From a virus: a stretch of DNA of 31,516 nt. Location: the IMG/VR virus record IMGVR_UViG_3300020724_000020; one strand, written 5' to 3'. This document shows, piece after piece, positions 9,359 to 9,915 of the stretch. Position numbers and translations under genes: made by a program. The notes beneath the pieces are model-generated. The model saw only the letters and a list, made by a program, of their open reading frames with translations. It was not told the origin of the DNA and made no database searches. Within the stretch, counting starts at the first letter, position 1. The number at the start of each line of letters is the position of its first letter.

Positions 9359-9423
9359 AAAAAAATATAACCTATGAAATATATTAAATTGTACGAAAAT
9401 GAAAATAAATGGAATAAAGTTCT
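9359..9423 (+). repeat. 65-nt perfect direct repeat copy 1 (tail-stop-head junction AAAAAAATATAACCTATGAAATATATTAAATTGTACGAAAATGAAAATAAATGGAATAAAGTTC)
   Basis: identical to 9851-9915 by eye. Confidence 0.9.
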
Positions 9424-9869
9424 TCATGCTGCAACATGGACACATTTCAAAATAGGTGCTGATAAATGGTATATGAATTTTGATAAAATTAAATTGGCAA
9501 TTGAAAATGGTGCTGATCCAAATTTTTGTGGAACATTAAATTGGGCGACTAGAATGAATAATTTTGAAGTTGTAAAATATATGTTAGAACATGGTGCAAA
9601 TCCAGAAGATATTCAAGATACAGGTAAATGGACTCCTTTAATGAGTGCTGCTAGTTGCTAAGATTTTAATTGATTACAATGCAGATCCATTTCTTGGTAA
9701 TTTTCAGTATAATACAACAATGGATATAATAACACCGAAATCTAAAACAAGTACAGCGATTTTTGGATATGAATATCAACCAATAAATATTAAGAAAAAT
9801 CGTGATGAAATTCGTAAATACTTAGAAGAGAATAGTATCCACATGGTAACAAAAAAATATAACCTATGA
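9374..9869 (+). pseudogene. Fam-A member carrying ankyrin repeats, split by internal deletion/frameshift (ORFs 9374-9661 and 9645-9869)
   Basis: GADPN..G.T.L..A, TPLMSAAS and LVAKILIDYNADPF ankyrin motifs in two overlapping frames; tail VTKKYNL. Confidence 0.55.
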
Positions 9870-9915
9870 AATATATTAAATTGTACGAAAATGAAAATAA
9901 ATGGAATAAAGTTCA
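9851..9915 (+). repeat. 65-nt perfect direct repeat copy 2
   Basis: identical to 9359-9423. Confidence 0.9.

Follow-up and report, generated by a model that had tools for sequence, protein, structure and literature searches.

The closest described analogue of the locus reported here is the modular shuffling of T4-type phages by PeSL elements (Arbiol et al. 2010, PMC2839356; Comeau et al. 2014, PMC4122927). PeSLs are non-coding sequences of ~100 bp that combine a promoter with a terminator and repeatedly mark the borders of small ORFan genes in plastic genome regions, where an ORFan is found between two elements in one genome and a single element is found in a close relative. Excision of such a unit would give a mini-circle with one element (PMC2839356, PMC4122927), and PeSL mini-circles have been documented in T4-type phages (PMC2839356). 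In T4 accessory regions, short-repeat recombination has experimentally been shown to yield deletions and tandem amplifications, and in the study of tifA accessory genes were precisely lost or gained between short direct repeats with the genome otherwise unchanged (PMC9391042). Integron cassettes likewise form arrays in which unrelated small genes lie close together in one orientation, boundary elements recur and the unit can be excised. At the protein level, T4 internal proteins carry a capsid targeting sequence (CTS), a leader of ~10 aa with determinants at residues 4 and 7, and T4 Alt has propeptides at both termini (PMC3012670; PMC9026906). Here, we describe a perfect 64-nt direct repeat in viral DNA from IMG/VR record IMGVR_UViG_3300020724_000020 (31,516 nt, 26.8% GC; this whole stretch is referred to as the window). 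The repeat brackets a disrupted ankyrin-repeat gene within an array of small genes that begin and end with conserved protein motifs (the head and the tail), and a contig from the same population lacks the body of the ankyrin gene together with exactly one copy of the repeat.

The repeat occupies positions 9359–9422 (R1) and 9851–9914 (R2), at an offset of 492 nt, and is bordered by differing bases on both sides (9358 G versus 9850 C; 9423 T versus 9915 A). The preliminary description had reported a perfect repeat of 65 nt in a region of ~22% GC. The perfection stands, but the repeat measures 64 nt, as did the string quoted there, and the GC content is ~26% around it and 17% within it (by count). 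It is the longest exact repeat of the 31.5-kb window, in which the runners-up reach 26–31 nt, and the chance expectation for an exact 64-nt match, estimated from base frequencies, is ~1e-24 pairs. For the background of the gene family, 64-nt windows were cut in the same register at all 24 gene ends that read KYNL-stop, resulting in 276 pairs. The identity of these pairs averages 47% (sd 7%) and the next best pair reaches 70%, against 100% for the 9359/9851 pair. Ordinary junction pairs share just 8–16 nt of exact identity (maximum 26–28 nt) and are therefore weak substrates for homologous recombination. The 64-nt repeat is real and lies well above both chance and the background conservation of the family; the earlier view that it reflects recent DNA-level recombination through the junction, and not conservation, holds on these figures.

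Were the identity kept by selection on an RNA or translation signal rather than by recency, the initiation region would have been reused for two genes. In both copies, the same 15 nt do lead up to a start codon and the same 49 nt lie downstream, and the tail is present in 132/139 (95%) of the head-bearing open reading frames (ORFs) that abut a downstream start. The tail is also kept in 39/76 (51%) of the head-bearing ORFs that do not, no other junction pair exceeds 70% identity, the identity covers ankyrin-fold codons that have no such role in the gene behind R2 (gene Y), and Rfam gave no match; such selection is highly improbable. On both strands, the repeat folds no better than shuffled sequences (z = −0.26 and +0.29). 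A polyprotein or frameshift reading of the junction was rejected, as the −1 frame meets a TAA (ATA TAA) ahead of the ATG. The junction was also considered as a promoter, given a TATAAT that ends 3 nt ahead of the ATG, but a sigma-70-like scan of positions 7000–11000 found no enrichment (32 sites versus 37 ± 6.6 in shuffles, none at junctions). The exact 64-nt repeat had 0 matches in IMG/VR, an ankyrin-specific 36-mer had 0 matches in JGI metagenome contigs (a collection that is incomplete here, as one JGI contig does have the 36-mer), and blastn with positions 8100–16000 found no match among GenBank phages.

The source of the repeat can be traced to the ankyrin gene that it brackets. Its ORF matches Ank_2 in Pfam (E=3.3e-8, 34.4 bits, cut-off 27.3), as well as Ank_4, Ank and Ank_3. 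Compared with intact homologues, the gene has a 17-nt deletion at about 9655–9660, by which the NDGYVD segment is gone and the reading frame is shifted, and the same lesion is found in every assembly covering the gene. Intact homologues, searched for with the conceptually repaired protein and aligned with it (P0001–P0020), have 169–178 aa and 55–72% identity. They start with MKYIKL[FY]EN..WNKVLH.ATWT, in which W13, L17, T21 and W22 are invariant, and finish with ..KKYNL. As the intact homologues bear both ends, the tail and the 16-codon head (MKYIKLYENENKWNKV in both repeat copies) originally belong to the ankyrin gene. A helical repeat fold is predicted for the homologues; in the AlphaFold2 model of one of them (P0002; predicted local distance difference test, pLDDT, 90.5), residues 1–7 are disordered (pLDDT below 50) and the first helix spans residues 13–21, thereby placing W13–V16 in the first helix of the modelled ankyrin fold. 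In a set of 380 family ORFs, taken from the window and from related loci, the signature WNx[VIL]L is confined to those with ankyrin cargo (7/7 matches).

Past the head conserved in the family, the repeat continues for ~22 nt through codons specific to ankyrin (WNKV, with which the first ankyrin helix begins), and is not a generic handle. Judged from the alignment, it is the end-to-start junction of the ankyrin gene itself, and gene Y has borrowed its head from that gene, four residues of the ankyrin fold included. We had initially supposed that the head originated in Y and was copied onto the ankyrin gene; the homologue alignment overturned this view. The remainder of Y shares PxIDDYVI..., VPPxF and KEDxxxYVDAxKYNL with its two upstream paralogues (families D6, D19 and D20). 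Among 5.8 billion proteins, Y has no homologue except itself; for the upstream neighbour, gene X, none except itself was found either. In agreement with the preliminary description, the ankyrin cargo (Ank_2) behind R1 and the ORFan body behind R2 are unrelated.

Both copies had been placed at the junction of two neighbouring cassettes, which is correct for R2, a true gene junction at which the ankyrin gene ends within the first bases of Y. The tail in R1 is an orphan: no start-codon ORF feeds it, and gene X stops 88 nt upstream with a KYNL-stop of its own. A 10-nt tandem duplication at 9340–9359, ATACCACAG[C/A], that is, ATACCACAGC followed by ATACCACAGA, adjoins the left boundary of R1 and may have been left by slippage when the repeat arose. 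The spacer between X and R1 was also considered as the decayed 3′ end of a further ankyrin copy, implying a tandem ankyrin origin; this was rejected because the similarity is not significant (125/500 shuffles score equally well). The features of the locus are listed in Table 1.

Table 1. Positions and make-up of the repeat copies, the neighbouring genes and the gene clusters of the window
Feature	Position	Strand	Description
Head/tail gene array holding the repeat	7092..10850	+	Genes 7092, 8147, 8557, 8846, 9374, 9866, 10231, 10545; mostly ATGA stop/start overlaps
Gene X, 146 aa	8846..9286	+	Upstream neighbour, paralogue of Y; stop codon inside hairpin 9279–9297
Non-coding spacer, X to R1	9287..9358	+	Ends in the 10-nt tandem duplication at the left edge of R1
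Repeat copy 1 (R1)	9359..9422	+	15-nt orphan tail AAAAAAATATAACCT (KKYNL, stop in ATGA), then the first 49 nt of the ankyrin gene (16 codons + 1 nt)
Ankyrin-repeat gene, disrupted	9374..9869	+	ORF 9374–9661 (95 aa) and frame-shifted rest 9645–9869
492-bp unit	9423..9914	+	Ankyrin body and one repeat copy (equivalently 9359–9850); missing from contig L003
Repeat copy 2 (R2)	9851..9914	+	Last 15 nt of the ankyrin gene (KKYNL, stop overlapping ATGA), then the first 16 codons of gene Y, ankyrin-derived
Gene Y, 122 aa, chimera	9866..10234	+	Codons 1–16 from the ankyrin gene; body related to paralogues 8557–8844 and 8846–9286
Head/tail clusters of the window	7092–10850, 14311–17600, 24302–26342, 30838–31152	+	IMG/VR counterparts L015–L083

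Exact-protein look-ups retrieved the ENA contig of the window (ERZ27271870 k141_311742) plus ~40 others from the ENA, JGI and Logan assemblies. R1, the frameshifted ankyrin gene and R2 are present at 100% identity in L001, L002, L005, L006 and L012, contigs of five assemblies that differ in pipeline; as these five span both copies identically, the repeat structure and the lesion are not assembly or sequencing errors. The preliminary description had called for a search for population heterogeneity with a breakpoint at the junction, and such heterogeneity was found in contig L003 (ERZ27271907, 1,964 nt). Positions 1–764 of this contig correspond to window positions 8659–9422 and positions 701–1964 to 9851–11114, both at 100% identity. 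The two alignments (764 and 1264 nt) overlap by exactly the 64-nt repeat: a single copy has been kept and 492 bp are missing. Apart from L003, the population is near-clonal, with collinear contigs at 99.8–100%, and the only other differences found are two single-nucleotide polymorphisms and one 18-nt in-frame tandem duplication (TGAAACAATACCATACAA at 28439/28440 in gene 28123–28659; L106 6890–6907), which separates a 184-aa from a 178-aa allele. No change of cassette order, which had also been anticipated, occurs in the ~25 further population contigs. An unaligned end of contig L009 was considered as a variant and rejected, being Illumina adapter; the ends of L101 and L104 are likewise adapter.

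The same contig could, in principle, be an assembly artefact of a static, recent duplication, produced by repeat collapse or tip pruning at small k and low coverage, with no recombination polymorphism at all. The deletion is supported by one contig alone, at k below 64 the repeat loops in a de Bruijn graph, and contigs L004, L007, L011 and L008 break within or at the repeat. Some of this breakage is ordinary, as the contigs that stop at 9388 are Logan contigs, for which a break at the repeat is the expected behaviour at k=31. Contig L003 itself is contiguous over 1,964 nt, so its coverage should have kept the 428-nt ankyrin body if present, and no ankyrin-bearing contig was retrieved from its sample. 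We regard an artefact as unlikely. A simple tandem segmental duplication is not indicated either, as the sequences diverge right after repeat position 64 and the homology beyond both copies that it should leave is not seen.

We consider it probable that the locus results from a transfer of the ankyrin head to Y, which bracketed the ankyrin pseudogene with perfect repeats, followed by a repeat-mediated loss of 492 bp. Because the proteins of the array carry a conserved N-terminal head and C-terminal tail, all its gene boundaries share ~40 nt of similarity. An ectopic gene conversion or a template switch may have been seeded in this similarity, whereupon the first 16 codons of the ankyrin gene would have overwritten the start of Y. 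The conversion tract would have closed in sequence specific to ankyrin, through an illegitimate or microhomology joint, as the right end of the repeat, ~22 nt beyond the conserved head, is not a crossover within shared homology. The outcome would be the frameshifted ankyrin pseudogene between perfect 64-nt direct repeats. Subsequently, homologous recombination between R1 and R2 would remove exactly 492 bp and leave one copy, the product seen in L003; it is the simplest route from the window form to this contig. The ankyrin-bearing form would have come first, because the cassette-less form still has ankyrin codons fused to Y.

Several points weigh against this sequence of events. The cassette-less form consists of one 1,964-nt MEGAHIT contig from a seemingly low-coverage sample and is documented at the assembly level only, and raw data may be common to the assemblies of ENA, JGI and Logan, which are thus only partly independent. 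An ancestral allele, in which Y would follow the ankyrin gene and still have its native head, was not found in the databases searched, so the conversion step is neither confirmed nor dated. Furthermore, the 15-nt tail of R1 could be the relic of a deleted upstream gene that matches by chance (AAAAAAATATAA recurs in four other tails of the window), or it may belong to a transferred ankyrin fragment.

The orphan tail of R1 would be accounted for if a fragment of 1.13 units (556 nt) from a tandem or rolling-circle ankyrin donor had been inserted illegitimately in one step, replacing the start of Y: the tail would then be the cut end of a preceding ankyrin copy, identical to the ankyrin gene's own and with no ORF feeding it. 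The boundaries fit such an event, with the 10-nt tandem duplication on the left and a TTCATG microhomology at a 3-nt offset on the right, and tandem segmental amplifications readily arise in phage T4 (PMC9391042). No tandem ankyrin donor was seen, however, and the DNA upstream of R1 has no residual ankyrin similarity. Moreover, a 15-nt identity between family tails is not very improbable, several of them differing at just two positions. A one-step insertion of this kind seems improbable to us.

Alternatively, the window form could be the insertion product rather than the ancestor, with a PeSL-style reversible mini-circle of 492 bp (the ankyrin body and one repeat) integrating into the cassette-less genome; the circle could also carry the cassette to other junctions. 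The repeat has the sequence expected for the closure of a circularised ankyrin unit, in which the gene's own tail overlaps its own ATG, and integration of a circle at a single repeat copy gives perfect flanking repeats, a route for which the PeSL mini-circles provide a precedent. In addition, contig L008 (ERZ27271831 k141_195270), which corresponds to window positions 8305–9914, stops exactly at the last base of R2, where reads running from ankyrin through the repeat into ankyrin would make a branch in the de Bruijn graph; its end fits a branch in a k=141 graph if some reads leave the repeat for sequence other than Y, such as tandem or circular ankyrin. Against this, the cassette-less form already bears ankyrin codons on Y, pointing to an earlier ankyrin-bearing state, no contig joins ankyrin to ankyrin through the repeat, the ankyrin gene never occurs in another context at high identity, and active spread of a pseudogene is unlikely. 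An origin through a circle is improbable, although mini-circle traffic is compatible with head transfer and repeat-mediated loss as an added step and is not a true alternative to it. As the spacer lacks ankyrin similarity and no ancestral allele was found, conversion, insertion of 1.13 units and reintegration of a circle are inseparable.

Compared with the described systems, the locus resembles PeSL regions in its short conserved sequences at the boundaries of small ORFan genes and in the pair formed by the window and L003, with an accessory gene between two elements in one and a single element in the other. It differs from them in that the recurring similarity is coding (head, tail and ATGA overlap), and in that the 64-nt repeat is a gene-specific duplication reaching past the shared motif. 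The junctions show no sigma-70 promoter or terminator signal above shuffles and no structure, and being coding they do not qualify as PeSLs. The precise loss between direct repeats in an otherwise unchanged genome recalls the T4 tifA study; there, experimental evolution acted on microhomologies, while here a perfect 64-nt repeat would stem from a head transfer and is observed in natural metagenomes (PMC9391042).

The cassette-like build of the arrays and an ORF with a Resolvase N-terminal domain 6 kb away (3434–3754) might suggest that the junctions are dedicated sites for site-specific recombination, integron-like or served by this serine-recombinase fragment. The repeat is unstructured on both strands and lacks an attC-like palindrome, the junction motifs vary synonymously as protein motifs do, and the boundaries of the repeat lie in gene-specific sequence, inside ORFs. 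An IntI tyrosine recombinase was not found, Pfam scans of the larger ORFs having given just the Resolvase N-terminal fragment in the 31.5 kb covered, a portion of a larger genome. With neither structure nor an integrase, integron-type sites are excluded, and we hold site-specific recombination in general to be very improbable.

The preliminary description had gone further and read the junctions as handles for cassette shuffling. What the locus shows is one head transfer and one precise cassette loss rather than shuffling, and a general role of the junctions as handles is only indirectly supported. The ankyrin cargo also occurs in arrays of this kind in eight diverged relatives, where its immediate neighbours are non-homologous, so the strict collinearity of relatives that had been named as speaking against exchange is not what is found. 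Neither the flanking conserved genes nor the ankyrin alignment found relatives in IMG/VR. The ankyrin heads of the diverged relatives vary (MKYIKLFEN, MITSFKIFEN and MKHLKTYEN). Heads of a second class, MIT[SNKQ]F[KH]IFE, are found in alternation with MKYIKxFE, orthologous ankyrin cargoes included (L084 6001–6510; L085 554–991 and 2094–2417; L095 664–972), which could reflect head replacement over evolutionary time.

The array that holds the repeat consists of members of a large and apparently undescribed family of genes in low-GC, uncultivated phages. In the window, ~20 genes of 76–456 aa in four clusters start with M-K-[YH]-[LI]-K-x-[FY]-E and end with K-Y-N-L, and KYNL-stop tails number 24 on the + strand and 0 on the − strand. 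In the wider family, the head reads M-K-[YH]-[LI]-K-x-F-E and the tail K-[YF]-N-[LI]-stop, on unrelated cargoes that are mostly joined by ATGA. A degenerate junction pattern found 69 stretches in ~45 IMG/VR contigs (8–330 kb, 21–29% GC); these loci contain 207 tails in 602 kb, where ~0.2 are expected per locus, and they are strand-consistent. Together with the window, the ~45 viral contigs hold 277 tailed ORFs. The cargoes of 230 head-bearing ORFs, 183 of which are tailed as well, include ankyrin, LRR, Zn-ribbon-like and ORFan domains. The junction pattern is nearly absent from 185,579 species genomes (3 single matches in metagenome-assembled genomes). Besides their cargo domains, head/tail genes match no family in Pfam or PHROG, and no relevant publication emerged from literature searches for the motif strings or for an account of such genes. 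At the motif positions, codons are used as in the background and amino-acid replacements are conservative (Y/H, L/I, Y/F; Leu as TTA, CTA, CTG or TTG), so the motifs are kept at the protein level and the DNA similarity of the junctions is a by-product.

Long junction repeats in two related contigs (L035 and L056) were rejected as independent cases, being whole-gene tandem paralogues, and a 40-nt junction repeat in L077 lies inside the conserved motif and is not decisive. Split or frameshifted head/tail genes also occur elsewhere, in L084 (5279–5464 and 5406–5681, a second ankyrin-like gene) and in L077 (reverse complement; 6020–6136 and 6158–6250), where the head of the broken gene sits in the 40-nt junction repeat. 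These genes suggest frequent pseudogenisation within head/tail arrays. At some stops of tailed genes that do not overlap the next gene, and only there, hairpins enclose the stop codon: 9279–9297, 25209–25243 and 26334–26366 (CTGTAAGTAATTACAG, ATCTGTGAGTAATCACAGAT), with DNA-fold z of −3.5, −7.0 and −5.6 (9279–9297 at −5.8 kcal/mol). At two of these sites a second small hairpin follows, while ATGA junctions fold at 0 kcal/mol. The hairpins may mark the end of an array or act as a processing element.

The heads recall the T4 CTS as short conserved N-terminal leaders on otherwise unrelated, fast-evolving cargoes. Residues 4 ([LI]) and 7 (F) are conserved and hydrophobic, and the leader is predicted to be disordered and to lie outside the folded domain, which starts at residue 13 in the one modelled protein (P0002). 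Unlike the CTS, the family adds a conserved C-terminal tail and long co-directional arrays, and homology between the two is not demonstrable. Neither structural genes nor a prohead protease were found in the window. The resemblance is a lead, not a test, and sequence offers no evidence of packaging or cleavage. A more far-reaching proposal, which we consider doubtful, would make the head/tail genes a new phage cassette system. The disordered leader and the C-terminal tag would send unrelated, effector-like cargoes to a common fate (e.g. encapsidation and injection, as with the T4 CTS), and the conserved codons and ATGA overlaps would form a portable in-frame recombination handle at each boundary. 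The bracketed ankyrin gene and its empty site would then represent an intermediate of cassette excision and insertion, with 0.5-kb circles as vehicles, and the phages concerned would be relatives of the huge Bacteroidetes phages.

Further features of the window concern its affiliation and gene content. A 428-aa protein (18515–19801, +) has two vault-related domains, Major Vault Protein shoulder and Vault_3 (Pfam E=8e-28), as well as SPFH-like similarity, and its only relatives in GenBank phages are encoded by the huge uncultured genomes LR756500 (462 kb) and LR756501/LR756503 (735 kb), at 47–51% aa identity. In the paper describing these huge phages, Bacteroidetes hosts were predicted for its genomes above 634 kb (PMC7162821). 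The 462-kb genome also has MKYIKEYEEF heads, with a tail that differs from KYNL. Four neighbouring genes of LR756500.1 (L112; reverse-complement locus 10755–14126, − strand of the locus) start with MKYIK[EG]YE[ED]F, and three of the four end with ...ADDFG[FM][FL]DN, constituting the same head class with another tail class. The TAnnTTTG motif of Bacteroidota is not enriched overall (62 versus 56.5 expected), so a host inference from it is weak. Signalling-type domains are encoded at 13788–14222 (−; cREC_REC, E=7e-17), 17208–17564 (+; response-regulator receiver, E=7e-9) and 23605–24015 (+; CYTH, E=2e-8). The 106-aa Resolvase N-terminal ORF (3434–3754, −) overlaps the start of a 431-aa ORF (2152–3447, −) that matches SSO2105_N in Pfam; the two may be a split or unusual serine recombinase. 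Finally, a 72-nt direct repeat of 82% identity (7783–7854 versus 12036–12107) at two − strand ORFs flanking the array (7849–8109 and 11821–12105) probably represents paralogous gene ends.

The gain, loss and reshuffling of phage accessory genes has largely been inferred from the comparison of distant genomes. Here, both states of one event are found in one near-clonal natural population: a repeat-bracketed cassette and its precise empty site. The repeat can be traced to a transfer of the head between neighbouring genes, which results in an in-frame chimera, gene Y, and it looks like a working recombination site for gene loss. Besides non-coding cassettes of the PeSL type, the conserved termini of proteins may thus nucleate such events.

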